Assembly: GCA_965209115.1 (NCBI GenBank) | Contig: CBDBQD010000002.1 | Span: forward strand, 261,042 to 325,041 | Origin: Acidimicrobiales bacterium | GTDB lineage: Bacteria > Actinomycetota > Acidimicrobiia > Acidimicrobiales > CATQHL01 | Direction of reading: 5' to 3' | Length of the DNA stretch: 64,000 bases | In this document: in pieces, positions 12,063-56,669 of the stretch | Position numbering within the stretch: the stretch's first letter is position 1 | Layout: each line of letters begins with the position of its first letter | Made by a program: the position numbers and the translations under genes | Notes under the pieces: generated by a model | What the model was told of the DNA's origin: nothing | The model's database searches: none | What the model saw: the letters and a program-made list of their open reading frames with translations, nothing else

Positions 12063-12310
12063 GACGCCCTCCTTCGGATGTCTGTGCTGGTGTGTTCTGC
12101 CGCCCGGTCAGATTATGGCCCGCCGGGGTGTCCCGGAAGTCGGCTCAATCGCCCACCCGCCGGCCGCGCGTCCCCGGGTCGGCTGGGCGATGAGAGAGGG
12201 GGTGCGCGTCCGCGGTCGGCCCTGCTGATTCGTGCTTCTCGAGAGCTATTTGCGGCCGGTCGGATGCCTGCCGCGTGCTAGTTTCGTGACGGTACGCGCG
12301 GAGGAGGGGC

Positions 12311-17048: not shown

Positions 17049-17113
17049 ACCACGCCGATGAGCCCCGCCCGGCGAATCGCTGTCCGCGTCGGCGCCGAGG
17101 CCGATCTCGAGCC

Positions 17114-20100: not shown

Positions 20101-20257
20101 CTGGGGCGACGGCTTCTACAGGGACCGTTTCATCGATCCAACCCTAGATGCGCCCACCGAGCCGCCGGCGGGTCCGTTCAGTTCCCTCGCCGTGGGCGAG
20201 TGGCACACCTGCGCGCTGCGCCCCGACGGCACCGCCGCCTGCTGGCTCAGCTACTGA
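17114..20257 (+). CDS. secreted RCC1-like beta-propeller repeat protein A2 (tandem paralogue)
   Basis: GTG 17114 gives VISGRRRVGGVALVVCLASAAC. Colinear with A1 and A3. Ends CWLSY*. Confidence 0.75.
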   Translation: MISGRRRVGGVALVVCLASAACAGGGVGVPGGDSPTGAAVAAPAAASGVSPGVPDVLARGSEMPPAPPGVSVPAPGASASVAGASGRGDGGVVEECGGVVEACGFVSVSVGTDGGCGLRAGGEVECWGGRGRVFCVVEAGEEQVCGEIAGGSAMAPEGAFVAVDTGPGYSCGVRAGGALACWGLRRYAPERWLLPPPVGAFRAVSVGDDSVCGVRVRGRVTCWGTTRRQGPITGLVPPEDLPPEDLPPEDLFVSVSVEQRSSAACGVRVDGAISCWSVDNPFFRSLPREFRSTREGRFRSVSVGWWYVCGIRVDATLECWGSHEFGAHLPPEGEFVSVDAGTGFACGVRADGEVVCWGVENRAPCENLTWCLGWDLYPGSAPEGPFTSVSVSRAEFWSATICGLRAGGELVCWNEEAVFHRPPPGSFVALDAGGDEACVPRLEGRRICWDAGAACGVSLDGGVRCWGAGASGWSPPDGAYVSVSVGSAHACGLLAGGEVACWGDAGDAPPGGAFTAVSAGTDFACGLRPGGEVVCWGSNAHWRASPPPGRFASISAAGGFACGLRADGEVVCWGDENALAFRCRHSTAWSLTKAGSLWDLDRCRSDDRGGRVTPPAGPFASIAAAGEYACGLRPDGEVVCWGDDRDEPSFVPPALSGPAAEISAHGGTLCALRGDGRVDCLDGGGRWPYDNDPWAPVAPSGTFTAVAAGHLHACGVRPDQTVECWSPRWPPGAGVPDARFGDPPLIVAVPDGDSGEPSPAARGVPRALEWVLEAPQGRFDALAVGSAEITCGRSLDGAVDCWEPIPDADPPMTVLHPDVLAADAGYWSSCWVRTDGTTCRRFERHFQSHDGPLIEGAFVDVGVGQDFACALGDGGDAVCWGANQYGQSAPTPPPWIPGPPYRALAVGHSHACALRTGGEALCWGDNRWGQTDAPPDSMVAISAGHRHTCGLRSDGEVVCWGDDLHGQTRSPKGTFTALGAGQWHTCGLRYDGEVACWGDGFYRDRFIDPTLDAPTEPPAGPFSSLAVGEWHTCALRPDGTAACWLSY

Positions 20258-20322
20258 ACCACGCCGATGAGCCCCGCCCGGCGAATCGCTGTCCGCGTCG
20301 GCGCCGAGGCCGACCTCGATCC

Positions 20323-23300
20323 GTGATCACGGGGCGCGAACGAGTCGGCGGTGTCGCGCTGGTCGTCTGCCTGGCGTCCGCGGCGTGCGCGGGTGGCGGG
20401 GCGGGGGTTCCCGGCGGTGACTCGCCCTCCGGGACCGCGGTGACGGCTCCGGCGGCGGCGTCGGGGGCTCCGGACGCGCCGGCGGGGGGTTCGGAGGTGT
20501 CGCCGGCGCCGCCGGGTGTCTCGTTGCCGGAGGCCGGGGCGGCGGGGCGGGGCGATGGTGGTTTGTTGGACGAGTGCGGGGGTGTGGAGGAGGCGTGCGG
20601 GTTCGTGTCGGTGAGTGTGGGCACTGATGGTGTTTGCGGGTTGCGGGCGGGCGGCGAGGTGGTGTGCTGGGGTGGGCGCGGTCGGGTGTTCTGTGTCGTC
20701 GAGGCCGGTGAGGAACAGGTGTGCACCGATGGTTCGGCGATGGCGCCGGAGGGCGCGTTCGTGGCGGTGGACACCGGTCCGGGTTACTCGTGCGGGGTGC
20801 GTGCGGGCGGCGCGCTGGCGTGCTGGGGGCTGCGTCGGTATGCGCCGGAGAGGTGGTTGTTGCCGCCGCCTGTGGGGGCCTTCAGGGCGGTGAGCGTCGG
20901 CGACGATTCGGCGTGCGGGGTGCGTGTCGGCGGGCGGGTGACGTGCTGGGGCACGACCAGGCGGTACGATCCGGTCGACGGATTGGTGCCGCCGGAGGAT
21001 CTGTTCGTGTCTGTGTCGGTGGACCACAGGTCGTTCTTTGCGTGCGGGGTGCGTGTCGACGGTGCGATCTCGTGTTGGAGCGCGGACGCGGATGCCAGCC
21101 TCCTCGCCGAGTTCCTCCCGAGGGAGTTCCGGTCGACGCGGGAGGGCAGGTTCAGATCGGTGTCGGTGGGGTGGTGGTATGTCTGCGGGATCCGGGTGGA
21201 CGCGACGCTGGAATGTTGGGGGTCTCACGAGTTCGGTGCGCACCTGCCGCCGGAGGGGGAATTCGTGTCGGTGGACGCCGGGACCGGGTTCGCCTGCGGG
21301 GTGCGCGCCGACGGGGAGGTTGTGTGCTGGGGCGTGGAGAATCGTGCGCCGTGCGAGAACCTTACGTGGTGTTTGGGGTGGGATCTGTACCCGGGGTCGG
21401 CGCCGGAGGGTCCGTTCACGTCGGTGAGCGTGTCGCGGGCTGAGTTCTGGTCGGCGACGATCTGCGGGTTGCGCGCGGGCGGCGAGTTGGTGTGCTGGAA
21501 CGAGGAGGCGGTGTTTCATCGCCCGCCGCCGGGGTCGTTCGTGGCGCTGGACGCCGGCGGGGACGAGGCGTGCGGCCCGCGTTCGGGGGGTCGGAGGATT
21601 TGTTGGGATGCGGGCGCCGCGTGCGGTGTGCTCTCGGGCGGGAGTGTGCGGTGTTGGGGCGCGGGCGCGTCGGGGTGGTCGCCGCCGGACGGCGTGTATG
21701 CGTCGGTGAGCGTCGGTTCGGCGCACGCGTGCGGGCTGCTCGCGGGCGGGGAGGTGGCGTGCTGGGGCGACGCGGGGGACGCGCCGCCGGGGGGCGCGTT
21801 CACCGCGGTCAGCGCGGGTACTGACTTCGCGTGCGGTCTGCGCCCCGGCGGGGAGGTGGTGTGTTGGGGGTCGGACGCTCATTGGCGGGCGAGCCCGCCG
21901 CCGGGGCGGTTCGCGTCGATCAGCGCCGCCGGGGGTTTCGCCTGCGGTCTGCGCGCCGACGGCGAGGCGGTGTGCTGGGGCGACGAGAACGCTTCGGCGT
22001 ATCGGTGTCGGCATTCGAAGGCCTGGGTTCTGAGCGATTCGGATCGGTGTCGCAGCGACGGCCGCGGCGGCGGCGTCACGCCGCCCGGACCGTTCGCGTC
22101 GGTCGCGGCCGCGGAGGGGTACGCGTGCGGTCTGCGCGACGGCGGCGAGGTGGTCTGTTGGGGCGACGACCGGGGCGAGCCCAGCCTCGTCCCGCCGGCG
22201 CTGCCGGGCCCGGTCGCGGAGATCACAGCGCACGGGGGAACCCTGTGCGCCCTGCGCGGCGACGGCAGCGTGGACTGCCTCGACGGCGGCGGGCGGTGGC
22301 CCGACAACGATCCGTGGGCGCCGGTCGCTCCGAGCGGGGCGTTCACCTCTGTCGCTGCGGGCCACCTGCACGCCTGCGGGATCCGTCCGGATCAGACGGT
22401 GGAGTGCTGGAGCCCGCGGTGGCCTCCCGGCGCCGGCGTTCCGGACGCCCGCTTCGGCGAACCGCCGCTGATCGTCGAGGCGCCCGACGGCGACAGCGGG
22501 GCGCCTTCGCCGGTCGCGCGTGGAGTCCCCTGGCGGCTGGAATGGGTCTTGGAGGGGCCGCAGGGGCGCTTCGATGCGCTCTCCGTCGAGGCGGACGTGA
22601 CCTGCGGGCGGCGCCTTGAGGGCAGGGTGGAATGCTGGGAACCGACGGTGTATTACAATGCCGAGAGCGCCCTCGACGACCGTGTGCTCGCGGCAGACGC
22701 CGCCTACTGGTCGTCGTGCTTCGTGCACACCGACTGGGCGGGATGCGGTTCGCTCGAACGGTTTCGCGGTCTTTCGATCGAGGGCGCATTCGTCGATGTC
22801 GGCGTGGGACACCTCTTCGCCTGCGCGCTCGGTGCCGGCGGCGATGCGGTCTGCTGGGGGGCGAACCAGTGGGGGCAGTCCTCGCCGAATCCGCCGCCGT
22901 GGATCCCCGGCCCGCCCTACCGCGCCCTCGCCGTCGGTCATTCCCACGCCTGCGCGCTGCGCGCCGGCGGCGACGCGCTCTGCTGGGGCGACGACCGTTG
23001 GGGCCAGACCGACGCGCCCCCCGACTCGATGGTGGCGATCTCAGCAGGCCACCGGCACACCTGCGGACTGCGCAGCGACGGCGAAGCAGTGTGTTGGGGC
23101 GACGATCTGCACGGCCAGACCCGAAGCCCGAAGGGCGCGTTCACCGCGCTCGGCGCCGGGCAGTGGCACACGTGCGGCTTGCGGGTTGACGGCGAGGCAG
23201 TGTGCTGGGGCGACGGCTTCTACGGCGGCGGCCGATACACCGACTTCTTCATCGATCCGCCCGCAGATGCGCCCACCGAGCCGCCGGCGGGTCCGTTCAG

Positions 23301-23376
23301 CTCCCTCGCCGTGGGCGAGTGGCACAGCTGCGCGCTGCGCCCCGACGGCACCGCCGCCTGCTGGCTCAGCTACTGA
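20323..23376 (+). CDS. secreted RCC1-like beta-propeller repeat protein A3 (tandem paralogue)
   Basis: GTG 20323 gives VITGRERVGGVALVVCLASAAC. By eye, roughly 21147-21570 is base-for-base identical to 18001-18424 in A2. Ends CWLSY followed by TGA. Confidence 0.75.
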   Translation: MITGRERVGGVALVVCLASAACAGGGAGVPGGDSPSGTAVTAPAAASGAPDAPAGGSEVSPAPPGVSLPEAGAAGRGDGGLLDECGGVEEACGFVSVSVGTDGVCGLRAGGEVVCWGGRGRVFCVVEAGEEQVCTDGSAMAPEGAFVAVDTGPGYSCGVRAGGALACWGLRRYAPERWLLPPPVGAFRAVSVGDDSACGVRVGGRVTCWGTTRRYDPVDGLVPPEDLFVSVSVDHRSFFACGVRVDGAISCWSADADASLLAEFLPREFRSTREGRFRSVSVGWWYVCGIRVDATLECWGSHEFGAHLPPEGEFVSVDAGTGFACGVRADGEVVCWGVENRAPCENLTWCLGWDLYPGSAPEGPFTSVSVSRAEFWSATICGLRAGGELVCWNEEAVFHRPPPGSFVALDAGGDEACGPRSGGRRICWDAGAACGVLSGGSVRCWGAGASGWSPPDGVYASVSVGSAHACGLLAGGEVACWGDAGDAPPGGAFTAVSAGTDFACGLRPGGEVVCWGSDAHWRASPPPGRFASISAAGGFACGLRADGEAVCWGDENASAYRCRHSKAWVLSDSDRCRSDGRGGGVTPPGPFASVAAAEGYACGLRDGGEVVCWGDDRGEPSLVPPALPGPVAEITAHGGTLCALRGDGSVDCLDGGGRWPDNDPWAPVAPSGAFTSVAAGHLHACGIRPDQTVECWSPRWPPGAGVPDARFGEPPLIVEAPDGDSGAPSPVARGVPWRLEWVLEGPQGRFDALSVEADVTCGRRLEGRVECWEPTVYYNAESALDDRVLAADAAYWSSCFVHTDWAGCGSLERFRGLSIEGAFVDVGVGHLFACALGAGGDAVCWGANQWGQSSPNPPPWIPGPPYRALAVGHSHACALRAGGDALCWGDDRWGQTDAPPDSMVAISAGHRHTCGLRSDGEAVCWGDDLHGQTRSPKGAFTALGAGQWHTCGLRVDGEAVCWGDGFYGGGRYTDFFIDPPADAPTEPPAGPFSSLAVGEWHSCALRPDGTAACWLSY

Positions 23377-23406
23377 ACCCGGACCGGGGACGCGGACGAC
23401 GGGGAC

Positions 23407-23472
23407 ATGCTGGCCGCCGAGTCGGTGGGTTGCTTGGAGTGTTTCGAGGAGGACGGCGAGATGGAGCCGTGA
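23407..23472 (+). other. orphan copy of the conserved acidic CxxC tail (MLAAESVGCLECFEEDGEMEP), in frame with A3 beyond its TGA
   Basis: The codons after TGA 23374-23376 stay in the A3 frame and encode TRTGDADDGDMLAAESVGCLECFEEDGEMEP*. The sequence could also be a 21-codon ORF starting at ATG 23407. Confidence 0.35.
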
Positions 23473-23747: not shown

Positions 23748-24320
23748 GTGGCTATCGGGCCCACCTTCGATGTTCGCCACGACGCCCCGCAACTGTCGGC
23801 CGATCATCGCCTCGTGTTGACGATCCTTCGCCGTCGCATCGGCGGCTCGACGGTGCAGGCCCTGGCCGACACGTCCGGCCTTCCGGCGGCAGTCGTGCGG
23901 GAATGCATCGACGCGATGCAAAAGGAGGGCCTGGTCTGCTGTGAGACCGCGCGCCTGCTTTGGGGCTACGGGACCCGTGTGGGCGAAGTGTGGAAGCTGA
24001 GCCTCTCCGAGCGCTGCCTCGACGTGCTCGCGACCCTGCCGCGGCCTGCGGGTGCCCCCGGACCGGCGCCGGAGCGGGTCCCGCCGCAGTTCTGGAGCCT
24101 CTTCAGTTCAGGCACCCATCCCGCGGAACTCTCTCTGCCCGCCGACGCCGTGGCCGTCGCCGGGCGGATGATCGACAGCGAGGACACAGCCGCACGGGCA
24201 TGGGCGTTGAGCAACCTCCCCCTCACGGCGTTGCGGACTCTCCGCACGATGCGCGGCTACGACACCGACCCCGCCGCCGGCCGCATCGACGTCGCGCTGG
24301 CCCACAGAACCGAACCCTGA
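23748..24320 (+). CDS. winged-helix DNA-binding protein, putative AbiEi-like antitoxin
   Basis: wHTH segment LTILRRRIGGSTVQALADTSGLPAAVVRECIDAMQKEGLV. It ends 8 nt before the AbiEii-like gene. The start (GTG 23748) is uncertain. Confidence 0.45.
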   Translation: MAIGPTFDVRHDAPQLSADHRLVLTILRRRIGGSTVQALADTSGLPAAVVRECIDAMQKEGLVCCETARLLWGYGTRVGEVWKLSLSERCLDVLATLPRPAGAPGPAPERVPPQFWSLFSSGTHPAELSLPADAVAVAGRMIDSEDTAARAWALSNLPLTALRTLRTMRGYDTDPAAGRIDVALAHRTEP

Positions 24321-25648: not shown

Positions 25649-25668
25649 GTGGGCTCGCCCGCGGCCCG

Positions 25669-26238
25669 ATGCTGGGGCGCCGCGAACTGCTCGACCTGTT
25701 CGGCGAGCTTGACGCGCTGCTCGCCGGCGACGTCGCCCACGAGTTGCTCGTCGTGGGCGGCGCAGCGATGGCGTTGCGGTGGGAAGGCCGCCTCAGCGAC
25801 GACGTCGATGTCGTCGATGTGCCCATACCGGCGGAGGTCCAGACGGCGGTCAGGGCGTTGGCCGAGGAGCAAGGCCTTTCGCCTGGCTGGCTGAACGCCG
25901 GTGCCGCCGCCTTCGCCCCGAACATGCAAGCCGACGCCACCGTCGTCTATCGCGGTCAGCGGCTCGTGGTCCGCGCCGCCGGCGCCGAGTACCTGCTGGC
26001 CATGAAGCTCCGGGCCTCTCGCGACCAGGACCTCGACGACGCCGTCTTGCTGGCCCGCGCAACCGGCCGCACCACACGCGAGACCCTGTATGAGCTGATC
26101 GCCGAGGGCTACTGGCGAGGAACCATCATCGCCGACCTCGAAGGGTTCGTCGGTGAGGTGCTCGAAGGCCTCGCCGCCGACACCCCGGAACTCGACGCCC
26201 CGTACGGCGCCCCGGAGCCGCCGGGCCTCGACATCTAG
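25669..26238 (+). CDS. DUF6036-like nucleotidyltransferase-fold protein
   Basis: ELLVVGGAAMALRWEGRLSDDVDVVD (NTase-like GG...R.S.D.D) and AEYLLAMKLRASRDQDLDDAVLLA. An alternative TTG start at 25645 overlaps the upstream stop. Confidence 0.55.
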   Translation: MLGRRELLDLFGELDALLAGDVAHELLVVGGAAMALRWEGRLSDDVDVVDVPIPAEVQTAVRALAEEQGLSPGWLNAGAAAFAPNMQADATVVYRGQRLVVRAAGAEYLLAMKLRASRDQDLDDAVLLARATGRTTRETLYELIAEGYWRGTIIADLEGFVGEVLEGLAADTPELDAPYGAPEPPGLDI

Positions 26239-26444: not shown

Positions 26445-26809
26445 TCAGGCCCCCATGGCGTGGTAGCCGCCGTCCACGTGCAGGATCTCCCCCGTGGTGG
26501 CGCCCAGCCAGTCCGACAGCAGCAGCACGCACGCCCGCGCCACGGGGTCGGCGTCGTTGACGTCCCAGCCCAGGGGGGAGCGCTGGGTCCAGGCCTCCTC
26601 GAACGCCTCGAAGCCGCGGATCGAGCGGGCCGCCATGGTGCGCACCGGACCTGCCGCGACGAGGTTGACCCGGATGCCCCGGGGGCCGAGGTCGCGGGCC
26701 AGGTAGCGGGCCACCGACTCCAGCGCCGCCTTCGACACGCCCATCCAGTCGTAGACGGGCCACGCCACCGTGGCGTCGAAGTCCAGCGCCACCAGCGACC
26801 CGCCGGCGG
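26445..26809 (-). pseudogene. duplicated 3' fragment of fabI
   Basis: It encodes GGSLVALDFDATVAWPVYDWMGVSKAALESVARYLARDLGPRGIRVNLVAAGPVRTMAARSI...ILHVDGGYHAMGA. This is colinear with residues ~138-258 of the intact gene at 36124-36488. Homology breaks after CCAGCGACCCGCCGG. Confidence 0.85.
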
Positions 26810-26976
26810 TCGGTTGGATCGCCCAGCCCGCCGTAGGGCGTCCCCGGGCCGGCTCGGCGCCCATGGCGGGAGTGCCTTTGTGGTTGGTCGGTGATTCGTG
26901 CTTCTCGAGTGTTGTCTCGGCATCCTCGCACGCCTGCTGCCTGCTAGTTTGGTCGCGGCTCTCGGAGGGGAGGGGC

Positions 26977-29900
26977 GTGGGCGGTTTTGGTTGTCTGCGG
27001 TCGGCGGGTTGGCGTTGTGTCGGCGGGCTCGTGTTGGTGTGCGCGCTGGTGTGCGCCGCGTTTCCGGCGTCGGCGGCCGCGAGGGTCTCCCCGCCGGTTG
27101 CGAGCGGCGTGTTGTCGGGTGTGGATGTGGCGGTGGGGGCGGCGGTGTCGGTGGACGCGTCGGTCGGTTTCTCGGGTTCGGTGGATGCCTATGCGGCGCG
27201 GTCTTCCGACGAGCGTGTGGTGGCGGTGGCGGTGTCGGGCTCGGTGTTGTCGCTTCGCGGCGCGGCGGCGGGGGAGGCGCATGTGACGGTGCAGGCGACG
27301 AATCCCGCGGGGAGCGCGTGGCAGCGGTTCGCGGTGCGGGTCGAGGCGGTGCCGCCGCCGACGCTGCGGGACGCGTTGGGGGACTTGTCGCTGCACGTCG
27401 GCGCGGCGGAGAAGGTGGATCTGGCACCTCTGTTCGCCGGCAGTGTGGCCGCCTACAGCGCCGCGAGCGGCGACGAGGGTGTGGCGTCGGTGGCGGTGTC
27501 GGGTTCGGTGATGTCGGTGACCGGCGTGGGCGCGGGGTCGGCGGCCGTGAGGTACACCGCGACGAACGCCGGCGGCAGCGCCGGCTCGTCGCTGACGGTC
27601 ACCGTGGCCGCCGATCCTCCCGCCGCGCCCACCGTCGCCGGGGCGTTGGCGCCGCGGACGGTGGCGGCGGGATCGGCGGCGGCGGTCGACGTGGCGGCGA
27701 GTTTCGCCGGTGTCGTGGAGTCCTACGAGGCGACGTCGAGCGACGAGAGCAGGCTCACCGTCGCCGTGGCCGGCTCGGTCGTGTCGCTGACCGCTCTCTC
27801 CGCCGGCGCCGTGACCGTGACCGTCTTCGCCGCCAACTCGGCCGGGTCGGCGTCTCAGACGTTCGATGTCGCGGTCGTTTCCGGGTTGGAGGTCGCGGCG
27901 GCCGCGCCGGCGTACTGCCTCACCGGCGAGGGCCGCCCGGTGGTCGTTTCCTCTTCGGCGGCGGGGAGCGCGGCCGGGGCGGGCGCTTCGACTTTGGGCC
28001 GCGAGGGCGTCGCGTCCGTCGAGGTGGCCTACACGGTCAGCGGCGGCCGCGGGCCGTACACCGTCGTCGTCGGCGTCGCCGCGGCGGGCGCCCGCCTGTC
28101 CTTGCCGGCGGAGGGCGTCGGCGCGGTGGAGGTGAGTTGCGCCCGAGCGGGCGTGAACCTCAACGACGTGGCCGCGAGGGCCAACGCCGTCGAGGCGGGC
28201 CCCAAGACCGTCCGCCTCGCGGTCAGAGACGCCGACGGCGCCACCGCCGCCGCCGAAGTCACCTTCACCGTCGCCGAGGACGTCTACACCACCGCCTACA
28301 ACGGCGGCACCATGCGCGCCGGGCGGACCTACGTCATCGGCGACCCCGACGCATGGGCGCTCATAACCCTGCCCGCCGGACTCGACCTACGCTTCGAAGG
28401 CGTCAGCGAGGTGGACGGCGAGTTTGAGGCGGGCTACTTCGTCGACACGGCGTCCGGGTCGCTCGTCGTCCTCGACTGGAACACCGGCGCCGAAGTGCAC
28501 CGCAGCATCTCATCAGCCGCGCCGCCGCGCTCAGCGGGCGATTCCGCAGCAGCGACACGAAACGTCGACTCCCTGTTCGACGCTCTGGGTGCGTCAACGT
28601 CGATCCCTGCTGGTGTTGTTTACGCTGGTAGCGCCGCCGACTTCTCCGGCGATGATTGGCGACCATATGAAGGACTCCCGGCGGATACCAGGGTCATGAT
28701 GCACGAGAGCATGCTCAAGGGCGACCCGCTCACTGTCTGCAACGCCGCCACAGTCGAAGACTTCTATCTTGAGGACTTCAAGCTAAAGAGTCTCGACGGG
28801 ACGCCGGAAGGGGACAAGAAACGTCGCGAACTGCTGAAGGATTTCAATGAGGCATTCGCAGCGGCGGTAAAGGACTGGAATGAGGCCCTATATCGAGAGA
28901 AAGAAAAGGACGGCACTCCCCACAGGGTATTCGATATAGTCTCTCAAACCGGTAACTGCGATGGCGAGAAAGAGACCTCTCTAGACAACGCAGATGTAGA
29001 TATTATAGTCCATAAGCGAACGATGGGCACCGAAAATGTGTGCGACGGAAAGATAGGTAATAAAGCCACCGAGTGCTTTGCGCGCCATCACCTACACGGA
29101 CTGACGTGCAAATACTCACTCGGGTGTGCGAGAGTCGTTATCGAAGGCTTTCCACTACTTATGCAAGCCAACAAGACGTACCATACAATTGTCACAGCAA
29201 GCGATTCCTCGCGATTCAGGTCTACTATTGCGCATGAAATTGGTCATTTCCTAGGTCCCGGTGACTACAAGCAGAGCTGTCCAGTAGATGGAGACCTTAG
29301 CATTAAGACCCTCTACACCTACACGAAGTTGTCAGGCTGCCTTAGTCCACTTGATATGCCTATTGCGGAACGTGATAAGATTGATGTGCATGCTATCTAT
29401 CACCCAGACAAGTTGGTTAATGTGCGTGTCGTTGATGGGGATCTGGTGGGAAGACTGCCTTTGGATGCGGAGAATAATCTCGAGTTGAACGCGCACGTTA
29501 TCGTAGCGTGGAGTCGCCCGATCTCTGGTGGTGACTATTCTTATGTGGGCTCCTTCGTTGTGCACACCACAAGTGGTTCGGGAAGGATGAGAACCACAAC
29601 ACTCAATGAATCGGTCGCTGATGGTTCGTTTGAGATTCCGTTGGGTGGGTTGGATCCGGCGGGGCGGGAGTTCTTGGTGGCGGGCGTGACGCGAGGTGAC
29701 CACTATCGGCTCAAGGACGATCCGGCGCCTTGGACGGCGCACTGGGAGGTGCCTGCGGAGAAGTTGGGGCCGGGGTCTTGGGTGGCGGGTCATGCGTGGA
29801 CGTTGGGCGACCCCGCGACGCTCGCGGTGCCCGGGGCGGCACCGGGGCCGCAGCCGCCGCCGCAGCCGCCGCCTCCTCCCCCCTTGGTGGATCCGCCGGT

Positions 29901-30669
29901 GCCGGGGAATCTGCGGGTGGTCGGGACGTCGCAGAACACCGTGAGGTTGAGTTGGGGCGCTGTGAGCCCTGTGACGAGCTACGACTATCACACCACGGAT
30001 CCGGGTTCGAATACGTGGTGGATCACCCGCGGGATTCGGGGCACGTCGTTCACGGTGCCCGGCCTGACCGCTTCGACGCAGTACCGGTTCAAGGTGCGCG
30101 CCGTGAACGGCGACCGCACGTCGGCGTGGTCGCCGTCGGTGACCGCGAGCACGGACGGAGTCGATCCTCCACCGCTCACCTCGCCGATTTCGGTCTCGGG
30201 GACGGTGTCGGTTCGGCGGATCCCGCCGCGGGGTGCCAAGGGGCTCACGCTGGAGTACTCGTTCACACCCACCGGGGGGTCGCGGATCGTTCCGACGGGC
30301 CGCTTCGTGGTGTACGCGGAGCTGGGGACGGATTGGAAGCAGTCGAGCGTCGTCGCGGGCCCCACCTCGCAGGGGACTCGGGACTTCGGGCGGATCCTGA
30401 CTCGACGCGAGAGCGCGGGCCGCGGGCGCATCGAGGTGGCTTTCCGGCCGCTCGCGGGGAACGACGTCCTGCCGAGCCCGCAGCGGTTCATCGCCTACGG
30501 CGCGATGACGCTGAACAGCTGGTACACGAGCTCGGAGATCACCTTCACGATCCCGAAGCAGTCGAGCGCCCGGGCGGAGGGCTCCGCCTCCCGTTCCGGG
30601 GACATGCTCACTGGCGAGTCGGTGGGTTGTTTGGAGTGCTTCGAGGAGGACGGCGAGATGGAGCCGTGA
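26977..30669 (+). CDS. large secreted multidomain protein 'B': Ig-like x4, PKD-like, Zn-protease-like (HExxHxxGxxD), FN3, shared C-terminal domain, acidic CxxC tail
   Basis: GTG 26977 follows RBS GGAGGGGAGGGG, by homology to gene A's start. Signal peptide LVLVCALVCAAFPASAAA. HEIGHFLGPGD at 29233-29265. Pro-rich linker, then FN3 (NLRVVGTSQNTVRLSWGAV...YRFKVRAVNGDRTSAWS). Ends GESVGCLECFEEDGEMEP*. Confidence 0.75.
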   Translation: MGGFGCLRSAGWRCVGGLVLVCALVCAAFPASAAARVSPPVASGVLSGVDVAVGAAVSVDASVGFSGSVDAYAARSSDERVVAVAVSGSVLSLRGAAAGEAHVTVQATNPAGSAWQRFAVRVEAVPPPTLRDALGDLSLHVGAAEKVDLAPLFAGSVAAYSAASGDEGVASVAVSGSVMSVTGVGAGSAAVRYTATNAGGSAGSSLTVTVAADPPAAPTVAGALAPRTVAAGSAAAVDVAASFAGVVESYEATSSDESRLTVAVAGSVVSLTALSAGAVTVTVFAANSAGSASQTFDVAVVSGLEVAAAAPAYCLTGEGRPVVVSSSAAGSAAGAGASTLGREGVASVEVAYTVSGGRGPYTVVVGVAAAGARLSLPAEGVGAVEVSCARAGVNLNDVAARANAVEAGPKTVRLAVRDADGATAAAEVTFTVAEDVYTTAYNGGTMRAGRTYVIGDPDAWALITLPAGLDLRFEGVSEVDGEFEAGYFVDTASGSLVVLDWNTGAEVHRSISSAAPPRSAGDSAAATRNVDSLFDALGASTSIPAGVVYAGSAADFSGDDWRPYEGLPADTRVMMHESMLKGDPLTVCNAATVEDFYLEDFKLKSLDGTPEGDKKRRELLKDFNEAFAAAVKDWNEALYREKEKDGTPHRVFDIVSQTGNCDGEKETSLDNADVDIIVHKRTMGTENVCDGKIGNKATECFARHHLHGLTCKYSLGCARVVIEGFPLLMQANKTYHTIVTASDSSRFRSTIAHEIGHFLGPGDYKQSCPVDGDLSIKTLYTYTKLSGCLSPLDMPIAERDKIDVHAIYHPDKLVNVRVVDGDLVGRLPLDAENNLELNAHVIVAWSRPISGGDYSYVGSFVVHTTSGSGRMRTTTLNESVADGSFEIPLGGLDPAGREFLVAGVTRGDHYRLKDDPAPWTAHWEVPAEKLGPGSWVAGHAWTLGDPATLAVPGAAPGPQPPPQPPPPPPLVDPPVPGNLRVVGTSQNTVRLSWGAVSPVTSYDYHTTDPGSNTWWITRGIRGTSFTVPGLTASTQYRFKVRAVNGDRTSAWSPSVTASTDGVDPPPLTSPISVSGTVSVRRIPPRGAKGLTLEYSFTPTGGSRIVPTGRFVVYAELGTDWKQSSVVAGPTSQGTRDFGRILTRRESAGRGRIEVAFRPLAGNDVLPSPQRFIAYGAMTLNSWYTSSEITFTIPKQSSARAEGSASRSGDMLTGESVGCLECFEEDGEMEP

Positions 30670-30733
30670 GGCCTGGCGGAGGGGGTTGTGCGGTGAGTTC
30701 GGCTGTTGCGGCGGCGGCGCGTGAGGGGGGGTC

Positions 30734-33367
30734 GTGAGGGGACTGTTTGGGGCGGCGGCGGGGCTGGTGTCGTTGTTCGCGGGGCTGTGCAGTTCGCCGG
30801 AGCCGGTGGAGGCGCCCGATTCGGCGGCGGGGGATGTCGCGCCGGCGGGCGGGTTCGTGGCAGTGAGCGTGGACGGCCGGTCGCTCGGTTGCGGTCTGCG
30901 GGCCGATGGTTCGGTGCGGTGTTGGGGTTGGGGCCCGGCGGCGGTCTCGCCGGAGGGCCGGTTCTCGGCGGTGAGCGTCGGCGGCGGCGTCGCGTGCGGG
31001 GTCCGCGGGGGCGGGGAGGTCCATTGTTGGGGCGAGGAGTCCGGGGGGCTGCTGTCGCCGCCGGCGGGGGCGTTCTCCTCGGTGAGTGTGGGCAACGGGT
31101 CGGCGTGCGGGGTGCGCGCCGGCGGGCGTGTGGCGTGTTGGGGCGGGGGGGCGTCGGGGTGGCCGGTGCCCGACGGCGGGTTCCGCATGGTGGACGTCGA
31201 CAGCGGGTCGGCGTGCGGGGTGCGCGAGGACGGCGCGGTGGTCTGTTGGGACGGATGGGGGGGTGACCCGCGTCTGGTGGTCGAAGGCCCGTTCCGGCTG
31301 GTGGACGTGTGGAGCGATGGCTTCCGGTGCGGCGTGCTGGAGAGCGGGGGGTTGGAGTGCTGGGACCGAAATGGACGCAGGTCGTGGTCGTCGCCTGCGG
31401 GCACGTTCGTGGACGTGGCTGTGAACGAGAGGTTCGCCTGCGGCGTTCGCGACAGCGGCGAAGTGGCCTGTTGGGGCCAGCGGGAGTCGGAGTTTTGCTA
31501 CTGGGGGACAGGCGAGTACTGCGGAGGCTGGGGCAACGATCCGTTGCCTGGGGGGCCGTTCACGTCGATCAGCGCCGGGCCGTGGCCGCTGGCCATGAGG
31601 GACACGCTCTGCGGCGTGCGCGCCGACGGGCGGCTGGCGTGCTGGAACGACGGGTCGCCCCGCCGCCGTCCCCCGGCCGGGGAGTTCGCGGCGGTCGACG
31701 TCGGCGAGGCGGTGTGCGGGCTGCGCCCCGGCGGCGAGGCGGTGTGCTGGGGGGCCGGCGTGGGCTGGCAGGCGGACATCCCCCCCGGGGAGTTCACGGC
31801 GGTGAGCGGTTCCCGCTCGCACGCCTGCGGGCTGCGCCCTGGGGGCGGGGTGGAGTGCTGGGGGGACAACACATGGGGGGCGGCGGCGCCGCCGCCGGGC
31901 GAGTTCGCGGCGGTCGACGTGGCGGGGCGAGTGTCGTGCGGGCTGCGCCCCGGCGGCGACGTGGAGTGCTGGGGCGAGCCATTGGGCGGCGAGGCGGAAC
32001 CGCCGGCGGGGCCGTTCGTAGCGGTGGAGGCGAGCTCGGACCATGTGTGCGGTCTGCGTCCCGGCGGCGAGGCTGAGTGCTGGGGGCCGCGGTGGGTCGA
32101 TTTGTCGCCGGTGGACGCCTTCCCTGAGCGCGATTTCGGTGCTCCGGGGTGGGGGGGCACCTATCCGGGCGGCGCGTTCCGCGCTGTCAGCGCGTCCGGT
32201 CTGGTCGCCTGCGGGATACGCCCCGCGGGGTCCGTCGAGTGCTGGAGCCCGTACTGGCCGCCGGGTCTGGGGGTTCCCGACCCCGACGACCCGTGGGGCG
32301 GCAGCGCCGTCCTGTTCGAGCCGCCCCGCCGCGGCGTGCCTCGGGAGCTGGAGTGGGTGCGGGGCGACCTGCCCGGGGGGCCCTATGTGGCGTTGGACTC
32401 GGGGTGGCAGCACACCTGCGGCTTGCGCGCCGACCGCGCCGTGGAGTGCCACGGCCCTGATGCCCGTTCGCCCGACGGCGAGTTCGCCGCCGTCGATGTC
32501 GGCCTGTGGGACGGCTGCGGGCTCCGGCCCAGCGGCGAGTTGGCCTGCTGGAACCTCAGGTGGGAGGGCTGGGCGGATTGGGTGCCGGATCTGCCGCTGG
32601 CGCCGGGCGAGCGGGTCGTCGCGCTCGATTCGGGCTCGAGCGGGGCCTGCGGACTCACCGATGCCGGCGACGTCGTCTGCGCGGTCGGAGAACGGCCGGC
32701 CGCGGAAGCCCGCGACAGCGACGTGCCCCGACGGCTCGCCGGGCCGTTCGGGAGTTTCAGCGTCGGTTCGGGAGCGCTGAGCGAGAGTTGGGACGAGGGT
32801 TTCTCCAAGCAGAGCGCCCACGTGTGCGCCGTCGGCGGCGGCGGGCTGTTGGAGTGTCGGGGCTACAACCTCAGCGGCCGGACGGCGCTGCCGCCGCCGT
32901 GGTTGGACGACCCGCCCTACCGGGCGGTGGCGGCGGGGTTCGCGCACACCTGCGCGATCGGCGCCTCCGGCGGGGTGGTGTGCTGGGGCGACGACCGCTA
33001 CGGCCAGACCGACAGCCCCGAGGGGGTGTTCACCGACGTCGGCGCCGGGCAGTGGCACACCTGCGGGTTGCGCTCCGACGGGGAGGTGGTGTGCTGGGGC
33101 GACGGCCCCGCCGATTACGACCAGCACTTCGACGACCCGCCGCCGGGAGAGATCGGTGTGCCGCCTCGGGGCCCGTTCAGTTCGCTCGCCGTGGGCGAGT
33201 GGCACAGCTGCGCGCTGCGCCCCGACGGCACCGCCGCCTGCTGGCTCAGCTACGGCCCCCAGACCTGGGCCATGTACGCCAGCGACATGGACACCGGCGA
33301 CCTGCTTCCCGGCGAGTCGGAGGGTTGTCTGGAGTGCTTCGAGGAGGACGGCGAGATGGAGCCATGA
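30734..33367 (+). CDS. secreted RCC1-like beta-propeller repeat protein B1 with acidic CxxC tail
   Basis: GTG 30734. Signal peptide AAAGLVSLFAGLC|SS. CGLRxDGxxxCWG repeats throughout. After CWLSY it continues GPQTWAMYASDMDTGDLLPGESEGCLECFEEDGEMEP*. Confidence 0.75.
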   Translation: MRGLFGAAAGLVSLFAGLCSSPEPVEAPDSAAGDVAPAGGFVAVSVDGRSLGCGLRADGSVRCWGWGPAAVSPEGRFSAVSVGGGVACGVRGGGEVHCWGEESGGLLSPPAGAFSSVSVGNGSACGVRAGGRVACWGGGASGWPVPDGGFRMVDVDSGSACGVREDGAVVCWDGWGGDPRLVVEGPFRLVDVWSDGFRCGVLESGGLECWDRNGRRSWSSPAGTFVDVAVNERFACGVRDSGEVACWGQRESEFCYWGTGEYCGGWGNDPLPGGPFTSISAGPWPLAMRDTLCGVRADGRLACWNDGSPRRRPPAGEFAAVDVGEAVCGLRPGGEAVCWGAGVGWQADIPPGEFTAVSGSRSHACGLRPGGGVECWGDNTWGAAAPPPGEFAAVDVAGRVSCGLRPGGDVECWGEPLGGEAEPPAGPFVAVEASSDHVCGLRPGGEAECWGPRWVDLSPVDAFPERDFGAPGWGGTYPGGAFRAVSASGLVACGIRPAGSVECWSPYWPPGLGVPDPDDPWGGSAVLFEPPRRGVPRELEWVRGDLPGGPYVALDSGWQHTCGLRADRAVECHGPDARSPDGEFAAVDVGLWDGCGLRPSGELACWNLRWEGWADWVPDLPLAPGERVVALDSGSSGACGLTDAGDVVCAVGERPAAEARDSDVPRRLAGPFGSFSVGSGALSESWDEGFSKQSAHVCAVGGGGLLECRGYNLSGRTALPPPWLDDPPYRAVAAGFAHTCAIGASGGVVCWGDDRYGQTDSPEGVFTDVGAGQWHTCGLRSDGEVVCWGDGPADYDQHFDDPPPGEIGVPPRGPFSSLAVGEWHSCALRPDGTAACWLSYGPQTWAMYASDMDTGDLLPGESEGCLECFEEDGEMEP

Positions 33368-33431: not shown

Positions 33432-34481
33432 GTGAGGGTTCTGTCGGTGGCGGTGTCGTTGGTGTCGTTGTTCGCGGGGCTGTGCGGCGCGCCGGAGCAG
33501 GTGGAGGCGCCGGAGCCGGCGGTGGAGGACTCGCCGGCGGCGGACGGGTTCGTGGCGGTGAGCGTCGGCGACGACTTCGGCTGTGCCCTGAGTGGGGACG
33601 GTTCGGTGCGGTGTTGGGGTCGGGGTGTGCCGGCGCCGCCGGAGGGGAGCTTCTCGGCTGTGAGCGTCAGTGCCCGGTTGGCTTGTGGAGTACAGGTCGG
33701 AGGGCAGCTGGCGTGCTGGAGTCTCTCCAGGGATCTGGATGCGGCGGCGCCGCCGGAAGGCGAGTTCTCCGCGGTGTCGGTGAGCGTAACGGGGGCTTGT
33801 GGGTTGCGTCTCGACGGTGGGGTGGCGTGTTGGGATCCCTACGGGGTCGGGGAGGAATGGTCGTCGCCGGAGGGCGAGTTCGTGGCGGTGTCGGTGGGTC
33901 CCGGGGCGGCGTGCGGCGTGCGGGTGGATGGAGCGGCGGTGTGCTGGAAGGTCAGTTCGGCAGGCTGGGTCGTCGATCCGGGTCCGTTCGTGACGCTGGA
34001 TGTGGGGACGAGTCACGGTTGCGGGATCCGGGTGGGCGGCGAGGTGGTTTGCTGGCCTCCACTGGCGCTGGGGGGCGACGCGGTGCCGGCATACGGGCAG
34101 TTGTCGCCGCCGGCGGGGACGTTCGTGGATGTGGCGGTGAACGTGTTGTTCTCGTGCGGCCTCCGCGTCGACGGCGAGGTGGTGTGCTGGGGCGCCCGTC
34201 GGCCGAACGAGTGCTACTCCGAGTGGGATGTGTGCCCGGGTTGGGCCGCGGACCCGGTTCCGCCGGGGCCGTTCGCGGCGTTTGACGTGGCGTCGGGTCG
34301 CCATGGGGTCGAAGGTACGGTCTGTGCGGTGCGCGTCGACGGGGAGGTGGTGTGTTGGGGAGAGGGGCAGCCCCGTCTGCGCCCGCCGGGCGGCGAGTTC
34401 GTGGCCGTGGACGTCGGCCGCGACGCGGTGTGTGGTCTGCGCCCCGGCGGCGAGGCGGAGTGTTGGGGTCGGGTGGATTGA
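33432..34481 (+). CDS. RCC1-like repeat protein B2 (N-terminal part of a B1-like gene, ended by in-frame TGA)
   Basis: GTG 33432. Signal peptide VAVSLVSLFAGLC|GA. Colinear with the first half of B1. Stop at 34479-34481. Confidence 0.6.
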   Translation: MRVLSVAVSLVSLFAGLCGAPEQVEAPEPAVEDSPAADGFVAVSVGDDFGCALSGDGSVRCWGRGVPAPPEGSFSAVSVSARLACGVQVGGQLACWSLSRDLDAAAPPEGEFSAVSVSVTGACGLRLDGGVACWDPYGVGEEWSSPEGEFVAVSVGPGAACGVRVDGAAVCWKVSSAGWVVDPGPFVTLDVGTSHGCGIRVGGEVVCWPPLALGGDAVPAYGQLSPPAGTFVDVAVNVLFSCGLRVDGEVVCWGARRPNECYSEWDVCPGWAADPVPPGPFAAFDVASGRHGVEGTVCAVRVDGEVVCWGEGQPRLRPPGGEFVAVDVGRDAVCGLRPGGEAECWGRVD

Positions 34482-34490
34482 CTCGGGCAG

Positions 34491-36074
34491 GTGCCCGGAG
34501 GCGTGTTCAAGGCGGTGAGCGTGGACCGTCTGCGTGCCTGCGGTCTGCGTCCGGGCGGCGAGTTGGTGTGCTGGGGGGACAACACGTGGGGTGCTGCGGC
34601 GGCGCCGCCGGGCGAGTTCGCGGCGGTCGACGTGGAGGGGCGGCTGTCGTGCGGTCTGCGTCCCGGCGGAGAGGCGGAGTGTTGGGGTGAGCCGTTTGTC
34701 GGCGGGGCGGAGCCTCCGCCGGGGCCGTCCGCCGCGATCGAGGTGCGCGATACGTGGCGAGGAGCGTACGCGTGCGGGCTGCGCGCCGACGGCGCCGCGG
34801 AGTGCTGGGGGCCGCGGTGGGTCGACGAGTCACCGGAGGACGCTTTCTCCGAGCCCGATTTCGATGGCCCGCGGTGGCGGGGGACCTATCCGGGCGGCAC
34901 GTTCAGTAGCGTCAGCTCGCGTTCATGGCTCGCCTGCGGAATCCGCCCCGCCGGGACCGTTGAGTGTTGGGGCCCGGACCTGCACCCGGGTCTCGGCGTG
35001 CCCGCCCCGGAGACTTCCGCCTTGGCCGCCGAGCGCGACCAGGGCGGCGCCCGACCTGTCGGGGTGCCTGCGGAACTGGAGTGGGTGCGGGGCGACCTGC
35101 CCGGGGGGCCTTACGTGGAGCTGAGTTCGGGTTGGTATCACACCTGCGGCGTGCGCGCTGACCGCACCGTGGAGTGCTTCGGCGCCACCGGTCGCTCCCC
35201 CGAAGGCGAGTTCACCGCCATCGACGTCGACGCTTCCGGGGTTTGCGGAGTCCGCTCGGGCGGCGGGGTGAGTTGCCGGTACCTCAGATGGGAGGGCTGG
35301 GCGGACCGGGTGCCGGATCTGCCGCTGGCACCGGGCGAGCGGGTCGCAGCCTTGGATTCCACAGCTGACGGGCTTCACGTGTTGCTCAACACCGGTGACA
35401 TCGTTCGTGTCTTCGGCTTTGAGGGCCGCCGAACCGAGCGCATCGCGGGGCCGTACGTGCTGTTCAGTGCGGGACACGGCTTGGTGGTGCATCACTGGGC
35501 GCCGCACCCCTCCGAGGAGGCCGCCCATGTGTGCGCCGTGGACGTCGGCGGGCTGTTGAAGTGTCGGGGCTACAACCTCAGCGGCCGGACGGCGCTGCCG
35601 GCGCCGTGGTTGGACGACCCGCCCTACCGGGCGGTGGCGGCGGGATTCGCGCACACCTGCGCGATCGGCGCCACCGGCGGAGTGGTGTGCTGGGGCGACG
35701 ACCGCCACGGCCAGACCGACAGCCCCGAGGGGTCCTTCACCGAGCTGGGCGCCGGGCAGTGGCACACCTGCGGGTTGCGCGACGACGGTGAGGTGGTGTG
35801 CTGGGGCGACGGCCCCGCCGATTACGAGCAGCACTTCGACGACCCGCCGCCGGGAGAGATCGGTGTGCCGCCTCGGGGCCCGTTCAGTTCCCTCGCCGTG
35901 GGCCAGTGGCACAGCTGCGCGCTGCGCCCCGACGGCACCGCCGCCGGCTGGCTCAGCTACGGCCCCCAGACCTGGGCCATGTACGCCAGCGACATGAGCG
36001 CCGGCGACCTGCTTCCCGGCGAGTCGGAGGGTTGTCTGGAGTGCTTCGAGGAGGACGGCGAGATGGAGCCATGA
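34491..36074 (+). CDS. RCC1-like repeat protein B3 (C-terminal part of the same B1-like gene, no signal peptide) with acidic CxxC tail
   Basis: Same reading frame as B2. Colinear with the second half of B1. Ends GESEGCLECFEEDGEMEP*. It may be expressed only if the TGA is bypassed or GTG 34491 is used as a start. Confidence 0.5.
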   Translation: MPGGVFKAVSVDRLRACGLRPGGELVCWGDNTWGAAAAPPGEFAAVDVEGRLSCGLRPGGEAECWGEPFVGGAEPPPGPSAAIEVRDTWRGAYACGLRADGAAECWGPRWVDESPEDAFSEPDFDGPRWRGTYPGGTFSSVSSRSWLACGIRPAGTVECWGPDLHPGLGVPAPETSALAAERDQGGARPVGVPAELEWVRGDLPGGPYVELSSGWYHTCGVRADRTVECFGATGRSPEGEFTAIDVDASGVCGVRSGGGVSCRYLRWEGWADRVPDLPLAPGERVAALDSTADGLHVLLNTGDIVRVFGFEGRRTERIAGPYVLFSAGHGLVVHHWAPHPSEEAAHVCAVDVGGLLKCRGYNLSGRTALPAPWLDDPPYRAVAAGFAHTCAIGATGGVVCWGDDRHGQTDSPEGSFTELGAGQWHTCGLRDDGEVVCWGDGPADYEQHFDDPPPGEIGVPPRGPFSSLAVGQWHSCALRPDGTAAGWLSYGPQTWAMYASDMSAGDLLPGESEGCLECFEEDGEMEP

Positions 36075-36123: not shown

Positions 36124-36891
36124 TCAGGCCCCCATGGCGTGGTAGCCGCCGTCCACGTGCAGGATCTCCCCCGTGGTGGCGTCCAGCCAGTCCGACAGCA
36201 GCAGCACGCAGGCCCGGGCGACCGGGTCGGCGTCGTTGACGTCCCAGCCCAGCGGGGCGCGTTGGGTCCAGGCCTCCTCGAAGGCGTCGAAGCCCGGGAT
36301 CGAGCGCGCCGCCATGGTGCGCACCGGGCCCGCCGCCACGAGGTTGACGCGGATGCCCCGCGGCCCGAGGTCGCGGGCCAGGTAGCGCGCCACCGACTCG
36401 AGGGCCGCCTTCGCCACGCCCATCCAGTCGTAGACGGGCCAGGCCACGGTGGCGTCGAAGTCCAGCGCCACCAGCGACCCGCCGGAGCCCATCAGGGGTG
36501 TGACGGCGTCGGCCAGCGCCTTCAGGGAGTACGCCGATACCTCCAGGGCGACTGACACGTCCTCCCAGCCTGCGGCCATGAAGTCACCGCCGAGGCAGAC
36601 CTGGGGGGCGAAGCCGATGGCGTGCAGGGCGCCGTCCACGCCGCCCCAGCGCTCGGCCAGCGCGTCGCGCACCGCGGCGATGTGCTCGGGGCGGGTGACG
36701 TCGAGTTCCAGCACTTCGGGTGTCGGGTCCAGCTTGCGGGCGGTGCGCTCGGTGAGGCGCAGGCCACGCCCGGCACCGGTCAGGATCAACTCCGCCCCCT
36801 CGGCCGTGGCGAGTTGCGCCACCGCGAACGCGAGGGAGGCGTCGGTCAGCACGCCGGTGATCAGCAACCGCTTACCCGACAAGAGGCCCAT
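36124..36891 (-). CDS. fabI: enoyl-[acyl-carrier-protein] reductase (NADH)
   Basis: MGLLSGKRLLITGV... has an InhA-like N-terminus, and ...ILHVDGGYHAMGA is the C-terminus. The ORF extends to TTG 36900; ATG 36891 is preferred. Confidence 0.9.
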   Translation of the reverse strand: MGLLSGKRLLITGVLTDASLAFAVAQLATAEGAELILTGAGRGLRLTERTARKLDPTPEVLELDVTRPEHIAAVRDALAERWGGVDGALHAIGFAPQVCLGGDFMAAGWEDVSVALEVSAYSLKALADAVTPLMGSGGSLVALDFDATVAWPVYDWMGVAKAALESVARYLARDLGPRGIRVNLVAAGPVRTMAARSIPGFDAFEEAWTQRAPLGWDVNDADPVARACVLLLSDWLDATTGEILHVDGGYHAMGA

Positions 36892-36915
36892 CACGGTCAA
36901 GCTACCCTAGGCCCC

Positions 36916-56078: not shown

Positions 56079-56555
56079 TCAGCCGTTCCGAGATGCATTC
56101 ACTGTCGTGACGATTTCCTCCACGACTTCCTGGACGGGCTCGTGCTCCCAGTAGCGCAGCACGATCCATCCCGCTTCGCGCAGTCGCTGGTCGGTGTCGG
56201 AGTCCCGCCACTTGTTGCGTGCGATCTTCGCTGACCAGTAGTCGGCGTTGGTTCTCGGCTGGGTGTAGTGCTCGGGGCAGCCGTGCCAGAAGCAGCCGTC
56301 GATGAACACGGCGACCTTCGCGGGGCGGAACACCATGTCCGCGGTTCGCTGCAGCCCCGGTATCGGCCGGGCAGCGACCCGGTACCTCAGGCCCCGCCGG
56401 TGGACGGCGGACCGGACACGCAGTTCCGGCTTGGTGTCCCTGCTCCGGTTGGCGACCATCGACCGCCGGACCGCCTCGTCGACGGCCCAGGAGTCAGCCT
56501 GCGCCCGCACACGGCGCGACGACTCCGGTGCCGCCTCGTCAGTCACCTGGGCCAT
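56079..56555 (-). CDS. vsr: very short patch repair endonuclease
   Basis: SRDTKPELRVRSAVHRRGLRYR...DMVFRPAKVAVFIDGCFWHGCPEH...YWSAKIARNKWRDSDTD...GWIVLRYWEHE. Confidence 0.85.
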   Translation of the reverse strand: MAQVTDEAAPESSRRVRAQADSWAVDEAVRRSMVANRSRDTKPELRVRSAVHRRGLRYRVAARPIPGLQRTADMVFRPAKVAVFIDGCFWHGCPEHYTQPRTNADYWSAKIARNKWRDSDTDQRLREAGWIVLRYWEHEPVQEVVEEIVTTVNASRNG

Positions 56556-56669
56556 TATCCCACGGCCTCACGGCGCGGCAGGCGGTGAGCGCGAGGCGAG
56601 CGGAGAGGTGCCACGACCGGGGCGCCGAGTGTCGATCCGCGTGTCACACCCCGGTGGTGCAATAGGGCC

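Follow-up and report, generated by a model that had tools for sequence, protein, structure and literature searches.

An acidic CxxC tail of secreted Acidimicrobiales proteins as the probable closing element of an undescribed C-terminal domain

We analyzed a 64,000-nucleotide stretch of DNA (hereafter the window) from an Acidimicrobiales bacterium (GenBank assembly GCA_965209115.1, contig CBDBQD010000002.1, positions 261,042 to 325,041 of the forward strand), focusing on a short acidic tail with a CxxC motif that ends the large secreted protein encoded by gene B and recurs at neighbouring genes for RCC1-like proteins. The tail is probably the closing element of an undescribed C-terminal domain (CTD), its copies at the RCC1-like genes being by-products of duplication and fusion. 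CTD and tail together constitute an undescribed C-terminal module that ends large secreted proteins of sponge-associated Acidimicrobiales. A previous inspection of the window (the sequence-only reading) had instead suggested that the tail, as something shared by unrelated secreted proteins, could be a new recognition or processing tag. The homology and distribution of the module, the structure of the duplications and the states of the genes were observed directly. Loci and proteins of relatives are designated by numbers prefixed with L and P, respectively. The features of gene B that matter here are the following.

26971-30669, plus strand: gene B, encoding an intact secreted B-type protein with signal peptide, Ig-like repeats, HExxGH metzincin-like part, FN3, CTD and tail
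30175-30597, plus strand: CTD of B with acidic linker, a hitherto undescribed beta-sandwich of two repeats of ~55 amino acids (aa)
30598-30669, plus strand: tail of B (GDMLTGESVGCLECFEEDGEMEP, then stop), with anchor 1 (GDML.GE), the CxxC within a spacer, and anchor 2 (GEMEP)

Searching for homologues of B retrieved the window protein (P0001), an orthologue with 70% identity (P0002) and remoter relatives. A CTD of ~125 aa with an alignable acidic tail was common to 11 homologues (including P0001) and to gene A of the window. When a profile of CTD plus tail was run against 1.84 billion representatives, 280 matched at E<=1e-3, 114 at E<=1e-10 and 26 at E<=1e-30; tail and cysteine counts were taken from the best 150 of the 280 cluster representatives. 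An acidic tail of 30-58 aa was present in ~65 of 99 proteins with a C-terminal CTD, always with the same plan: an acidic linker leads to anchor 1 ([LM]xxxxPG[ED]), which a variable spacer separates from the terminal anchor 2 ([ED]Gx[LM][EDS]; for example GGLMSDE, EGRLE, GEMEP or ADLEP). In the window, this plan is found in B (DMLTGE...DGEMEP) and in A (LAQALAAGE...EADLES). The tails fall into four classes: class 1, GE[ST]VGC[LV]ECF..GEMEP; class 2, G[DE].ICTTCDAG.GDLEP..., to which GEGICEECFGAEADLES of gene A is related; a third class, PPGETVC[GA]HC followed by the stop; and a fourth, Cys-free class, GE.LPEWD.IEGRLE.. and P[VI]WD.TEG.ME... The CTD profile matched B, the 3' part of A, and loci L002, L003, L006, L010, L011 and L012. 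Judging by these alignments, the tail is the ancestral C-terminus of the B-type family. The CTD repeat follows the pattern G+I..R...G+hEF.F.P.GG.RI.P....F......RW..SS.I, and the same ~55-aa repeat also ends other proteins that carry no acidic tail (P0274, P0295, P0299 and P0313).

The tail had no Pfam match and the CTD none even at E<=1, six proteins had no NCBIfam match at E<=0.1, and neither CTD nor tail matched any PDB sequence, which bears out the view that the peptide corresponds to no known sorting signal or domain. A Foldseek comparison of the CTD with the PDB returned noise (best E 0.034, TM score ~0.2, YEATS domains), and a fold assignment on that basis was rejected. The tail does occur outside this genome, in relatives L001, L002 and L004, and diverged forms of it end many CTD proteins. 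A word-index search with the 41-aa tail found no match, and is unreliable in that it missed P0001 and P0126, window proteins present in that database. A 45-bit DNA pattern of the tail gave no match in GTDB species representatives and one in JGI metagenomes, sets that exclude the window genome and its near relatives; the pattern is too strict, missing both P0002 (...CFPDNGEMEP) and the TGG read-on of L002, and these scans show only that near-identical tails are rare.

An AlphaFold2 (AF2) model of CTD plus tail, built on a 12-sequence alignment, gave a confident beta-sandwich, with a predicted local distance difference test (pLDDT) of 86 and a predicted template modelling score of 0.85. Along the tail of B, pLDDT was <50 in the linker, 84 in the anchor-1 block, 62 in the CxxC block and 91 over the last four residues (EMEP); short strands were modelled at both anchors, with the CxxC in the loop between them. 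The tail is predicted to fold back onto its own CTD. Selection was assessed as omega, the ratio of non-synonymous to synonymous rates, between the window and L002. For B, omega was 0.33 over the whole gene, 0.27 over the CTD and 0.18 over the tail, the last value being based on 23 codons with 6 synonymous and 6 non-synonymous differences; it was 0.10 for fabI. The tail peptide of B is under purifying selection.

A spacer CxxC was found in only 16-17 tail-bearing proteins; 38 proteins had a cysteine pair in the CTD only, 14 a CxxC in the tail only, and 2 had both. Because the CxxC is nearly exclusive to CTDs without an internal Cys pair, it looks like a disulfide relocated from the CTD, which would be a tidy case of a disulfide moving from the core of a domain to its tail. 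The CxxC and acidic tail might instead form a metal-binding or thiol-disulfide-exchange site with a catalytic or sensing role, as would be consistent with the invariance of the CxxC in 8 of 8 class-1 copies from four genomes, the acidic flanking residues and the export of the carrier proteins. We consider this quite improbable, since around three-quarters of the tail-bearing members have PEWD or G.AAG in place of the CxxC, its appearance where the CTD Cys pair was lost suggests a structural disulfide, and the surroundings are not thioredoxin-like and offer no His or further Cys as a ligand. That the CxxC is not conserved across the wider CTD family also speaks against the general redox or metal tag that the sequence-only reading had thought possible.

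The recurrence of the tail at other genes of the window requires a separate explanation, and involves the following features.

12311-13968, plus strand: gene A, a paralogue of the B type that has lost a large internal part and has a frameshift near 13022-13030, with a diverged tail (AGEGICEECFGAEADLES, then stop) at 13912-13968
13965-17048, 17114-20257 and 20323-23376, plus strand: A1, A2 and A3, tandem RCC1-like genes ending at the ancestral ...CWLSY and stop
17049-17117, plus strand: decayed A-type tail remnant after A1 (TTPMSPARRIAVRVGAEADLEP, then stop), CxxC part deleted
20258-20326, plus strand: twin of the A1 tail remnant, after A2, CxxC part deleted
23377-23472, plus strand: intact orphan class-1 tail, in frame directly 3' of the TGA of A3
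30670-30733, plus strand: spacer from B to B1, the first ~55 nucleotides (nt) of which recur after every class-1 tail copy
30734-33367, plus strand: gene B1, intact and RCC1-like with an N-terminal signal; ancestral end ...CWLSY, then a 37-aa extension at 33254-33364 (tail core 33296-33367)
33432-36074, plus strand: B2/B3, a single B1 paralogue in one frame, broken by TGA at 34479-34481; tail copy at 36003-36074

A degenerate pattern (CxECF...tail plus stop) matched at exactly 13927-13968, 23431-23472, 30628-30669, 33326-33367 and 36033-36074 and nowhere else, against a chance expectation of 0 matches from 100 shuffles, so the five copies that the sequence-only reading had located are all present. 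B ends in GDMLTGESVGCLECFEEDGEMEP, B1 and B3 in GDLLPGESEGCLECFEEDGEMEP, the copy after A3 in MLAAESVGCLECFEEDGEMEP and A in AGEGICEECFGAEADLES, each followed by a stop. Nothing hydrophobic follows the motif: as had been remarked, there is neither a transmembrane helix nor a basic anchor, and the end, ...FEEDGEMEP, is fully acidic. Only two of the five copies, those of B and B1, end intact genes. Of the three full-length carriers of different architecture that had been counted, B and B1 hold; B3 (34491-36074) is not full-length and has no signal peptide, and it shares the architecture of B1, which leaves two architectures. B2/B3 is broken by a TGG to TGA nonsense codon at a place where B1 has Trp. 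The orphan copy (23407-23472) does follow the stop codon of A3. The diverged variant is likewise in place at the end of A, although A itself is a broken gene: its 5' part (12311-13066; signal peptide and Ig-like repeats) and its 3' part (12982-13968) are in different frames, the former matching P0004 of a related metagenome-assembled genome (MAG), near-identically over the first ~130 residues, and the latter matching P0008 and P0246.

The copies had been thought to differ almost only synonymously and hence to reflect selection on the peptide rather than recent copying. Over 18 codons, however, the window copies show 4 synonymous and 2 non-synonymous changes, and with relatives included the three codon positions have 6, 7 and 10 variable sites, respectively. 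The argument from synonymous changes is weak, because the counts are 4 against 2 and the untranslated orphan after A3 accounts for two of the four. Because similarity continues for ~55 nt past the stop, and given this pattern of codon changes, the copies are DNA-level duplicates; purifying selection on the tail of B stands, whereas the contrast with copying does not.

Similarity beyond the stop would also be expected if the nucleic acid itself served a function, whether as a start context for translation, as a regulatory RNA or as a small mobile repeat, and conservation of the peptide were secondary. In keeping with this, the GTG starts of A1, A2 and A3 overlap, as GTGA, the TGA that closes the tail of A and the remnants behind A1 and A2, respectively, and the orphan after A3 is intact though untranslated. 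We nevertheless regard such a function as very unlikely. No consistent fold was found after the stop (z-scores +1.2 to -2.6) and no Rfam family, terminator-like sites were no commoner than in shuffles, with none in the conserved post-stop stretch, and an RNA or regulatory element after the tail was rejected on these grounds. The B stop lies 65 nt from the B1 start, too distant for the GGAGG run of the tail to act as ribosome-binding site; the coding core is better conserved between pairs of copies (74-100% identity) than the downstream stretch (53-93%), in addition to the low omega of the B tail, and the copies are confined to this type of locus.

All of A1-A3, B1 and B2/B3 belong to the RCC1_2 repeat family (PF13540), the model of which matched in several copies with E-values from 1e-18 to 1e-59 (A1 3.3e-59, B1 1.6e-41, B3 3.1e-26, B2 2.2e-18). 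An end of the form CW[LYF][SN]Y, mostly ...CALRPDGTA.CWLSY, was found in 45 of the 120 best B1 homologues, and the RCC1 genes of GTDB Acidimicrobiales loci L005-L013 stop at CWLSY with nothing tail-like downstream, which argues that A1-A3 keep the ancestral end and that the tail-bearing RCC1 forms are derived. These forms are B1 and B3 of the window, P0192 of L004 (GCA_028819945.1; WLSYGPQTGDTEAGDMLTAETVGCLECVEEDGEMEP, then stop) and the sole RCC1 gene of L002 (..GEMDTGETVGCVECFEEELEMEPWDPAWG, then stop). In L002 the tail stop has mutated to TGG, adding 6 residues, and past this gene (16360-16470) lies a scar, ..AACRLSYG.., left over from the 3' end of what was another RCC1 copy. In L003 (18874-18930), the stop of a tail-less RCC1 gene is followed in frame by G, a stop, TPVEGRLDPR and another stop, a faint likeness to the Cys-free IEGRLD that may be due to chance.

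The AF2 model of B1 differed from that of the CTD: the propeller was well modelled, and most of the extension had pLDDT <50 (model residues 367-394 and 397-400), in columns informed by three sequences only. The tail on B1 is predicted to be disordered. Omega was 0.38 for the RCC1 body, 0.58 for the extension and 0.40 for the tail core; the RCC1 tail is no more constrained than the RCC1 body.

Within the window the tail has been lost repeatedly, from A1-A3, by decay after A1 and A2 and probably by gene conversion in A3. The A3 orthologue P0192 has GGC instead of TGA and reads through into the tail, while A3 has TACTGAACC in common with A1 and A2 and then changes to a P0192-like extension, a switch that would fit a gene-conversion tract that brought the stop back. 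A programmed read-through of TGA, giving tail-bearing isoforms of A1-A3 and joining B2 to B3, could make use of the tail or remnant that lies in frame after the TGA of each A gene and of the shared frame of B2 and B3. It is scarcely credible, given that TGA is the usual stop (16 of 25 genes), the in-frame remnants of A1 and A2 lack the motif core, the TGAACC that A3 shares with A1 and A2 before its switch fits gene conversion, and no recoding element was found. Selenocysteine or other recoding of TGA was set aside on the same grounds: TGA is the main stop codon, and gene conversion fits the data.

MAG L011 (CBDEFI010000002.1, 220-6518) shows duplication of the same kind, arisen independently: behind each of two RCC1 genes in tandem stands a B-type 3' fragment that is neither in frame nor fused; the first fragment has its own class-2 tail (..GRLAGGLAPGEEFCGTCDAPEIDMVPLPD..) and the second ends before the CxxC. 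In the window, the tail copies of the B cluster are spaced at 2698 and 2707 nt. In L010 (CBDCPC010000001.1, 294-2005), an orphan open reading frame (ORF) ending in ..GGVECFADQADMEP and stop adjoins a transposase-like ORF, and just downstream lies a short chimera, P0253, that combines RCC1-like repeats with FN3, CTD and tail. The tail on neighbouring RCC1 genes would be a lineage-specific by-product of duplication and fusion, and is unlikely to be a portable sorting tag; the latter idea fails in that the tail of B-type proteins is the end of their own CTD, docked there in the AF2 model, and RCC1 proteins normally stop at CWLSY.

A case for a true sorting, attachment or interaction signal can be made from the pairing of the two gene types. 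A B-type gene is followed by an RCC1 gene twice in the window and also in L002, L003, L006, L010 and L012, and this tight pairing across several Acidimicrobiales genomes would suit a linear motif read by a partner (for example, the RCC1 propeller as a surface receptor) or donor-strand-like docking into a CTD in trans. The conservation of the two-anchor motif right at the end of many large secreted proteins, the free and disordered RCC1 tail in AF2 and the occurrence of the motif in linkers too are all as expected of such a signal. We consider it unlikely all the same: docking in AF2 is in cis, the tail is missing from most RCC1 proteins and was lost in A1-A3, and three wider-family proteins with CTD and tail (P0244, P0245 and P0256) have recombinase, ResIII, DUF6094, RadC and SSB genes as neighbours and no RCC1 gene. 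On account of these three loci, the idea that RCC1 partners the CTD family as a whole was rejected. Neither the 64-kb window nor the flanks of L002, L003, L004 and L085-L087 yielded a candidate processing enzyme. The dedicated partner foreseen for the tail did not emerge either, in that no co-occurring gene was found in these stretches and the RCC1 neighbour is limited to the B-type subfamily; the tail was seen only on B-type proteins and adjacent RCC1 genes in the window and the relatives' loci, the rest of the source genome lying outside the search. A more specific proposal, which we hold to be improbable, is that CTD and tail form a surface-attachment or assembly module of sponge-symbiont Acidimicrobiales in which RCC1 tails dock in trans into the B-type CTD, by strand swap, or into the propeller, tethering the protease-bearing B to a membrane-proximal partner. 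If the tail did act in trans, it would represent a new assembly principle for surface proteins of monoderms.

Returning to the tail as closing element of the CTD, we infer its docking (from AF2), what the disulfide does and the sequence in which events took place as follows. After a short acidic linker, the two anchors would fold back as short strands on the CTD, and the spacer between them would be free to vary. A sub-lineage would have lost the Cys pair of the CTD while the spacer gained the CxxC, most likely a disulfide staple and possibly a metal clip in the extracytoplasmic space. Tandem duplication units would have begun within the 3' end of a B-type gene, which also holds the start context of the RCC1 gene; because the unit starts there, each RCC1 copy would have received a B 3' fragment behind it. 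In the window clade, one such fragment would have fused in frame beyond the old RCC1 stop.

Several points weigh against this explanation. The predicted docking comes from a single AF2 model on the 12-sequence alignment. The anticorrelation of the cysteines may be traceable to perhaps only one or two evolutionary events, and a CxxC disulfide is strained, such motifs in other proteins being often redox-active or metal-binding. In P0313 and P0295, a G[GD]LMTE motif is found also on the N-terminal side of the repeat or between domains, in a linker; because it thus occurs outside the tail, the tail motif may be a linear motif with a role of its own, although nothing observed here calls for one. 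The RCC1 extension is kept in three related genomes with omega <1, and could have some function there.

The window has a G+C content of 72% and carries a housekeeping block (cysS/mshC-like, thrS, pdxST, ruvB, tgt, yajC-secDF and relA). A 24-kb island, which lies between two minus-strand genes, the SMP30-like one (11181-12107) and fabI (36124-36906), holds two paralogous clusters, A-A1-A2-A3 and B-B1-B2/B3. One further feature marks its history.

26445-26820, minus strand: fabI fragment, duplicated at 92% identity from the 3' end of that gene (duplicated stretch 36124-36500)

This fragment marks a segmental duplication, and the B cluster is bracketed by fabI sequence. Gene order varies among relatives (fabI, B, RCC1, npdG in L002; RCC1, fabI, npdG in L004), and the locus is a rearrangement hot spot. 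Between the two clusters lie genes for a weak IclR/MarR-like helix-turn-helix protein (23760-24320) and a DUF6036/AbiEii-like nucleotidyltransferase (25660-26238), a pair that looks like a small toxin-antitoxin or defence-type insert. Within gene B, G+C falls to 61% at 28000-30000, over the HExxGH metzincin-like part, compared with ~73% elsewhere; this part gave only sub-threshold Pfam matches to M43, reprolysin and matrixin. P0004, an A-type paralogue in a relative, has another protease segment, suggesting cassette exchange or a foreign origin. Further downstream (56079-57761), a Vsr-like endonuclease gene (minus strand) adjoins a Dcm-like cytosine methyltransferase gene, after which G+C is lower (65%) at 58-60 kb. 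The nearest public loci are Acidimicrobiales MAGs, and the same RCC1-based scan also recovered loci in MAGs of Ca. Poriferisodalis and Ca. Poriferisocius, which are sponge-associated genera. In a literature search, Poriferisodalis was mentioned in no paper found, and the best-ranked papers on sponge Acidimicrobiia made no mention of RCC1.

Compared with known systems, the tail resembles the signals of sortases, exosortases, rhombosortases and archaeosortases (LPXTG, PEP-CTERM, GlyGly-CTERM and PGF-CTERM) in being a conserved motif of few residues that forms the very end of large secreted proteins with signal peptides. It differs from them in having no transmembrane helix, basic cluster or NCBIfam model match, in the lack of a sortase-like gene in the window or beside the relatives' loci, and in occurring with a single upstream domain, not across a wide range of families. 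The CTDs of the type IX secretion system (T9SS) are likewise beta-sandwiches of ~100-130 aa that end diverse large surface proteins of Ig, FN3 or leucine-rich repeat units, and are recognized and then removed; the module described here shows no sequence or fold similarity to them (Pfam, NCBIfam, Foldseek against the PDB) and has an extra acidic tail, and Acidimicrobiales are not known to have a T9SS. Thioredoxin-like CxxC proteins differ as well: there is no thioredoxin-family Pfam match, and the CxxC of the tail lies in an AF2 loop between two short strands, not at the start of a helix.

Another parallel may be found in repeat beta-proteins that have a closing ('Velcro') strand or a C-terminal latch strand: a short terminal strand packs on a repeat-built beta domain, with conserved anchors and a variable loop, as predicted here; our case differs in its long (~15-30 aa) acidic linker, in the CxxC clip of one subfamily and in being modelled by AF2 only. 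The module thus defined, with no relative in Pfam, NCBIfam or the PDB, ends many giant surface proteins, likely host-interaction factors, of sponge-associated Acidimicrobiales. As for the RCC1-like genes, they are members of the bacterial RCC1_2 proteins, which normally end at ...CWLSY, the acidic CxxC extension being confined to close relatives of the window. Their gain of 30-43 codons, supplied by a duplicated piece of the gene next to them, resembles the extension of genes in tandem arrays by stop loss or by a fused 3' fragment, and does not differ from it in anything essential: it is genome evolution of the ordinary kind, here visible with unusual clarity and in two independent instances, the window clade and L011. 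A tempting false lead is thereby removed, as a motif shared by seemingly 'unrelated' neighbours can come from a duplication unit that starts in the 3' end of the upstream gene, followed by fusion in frame.

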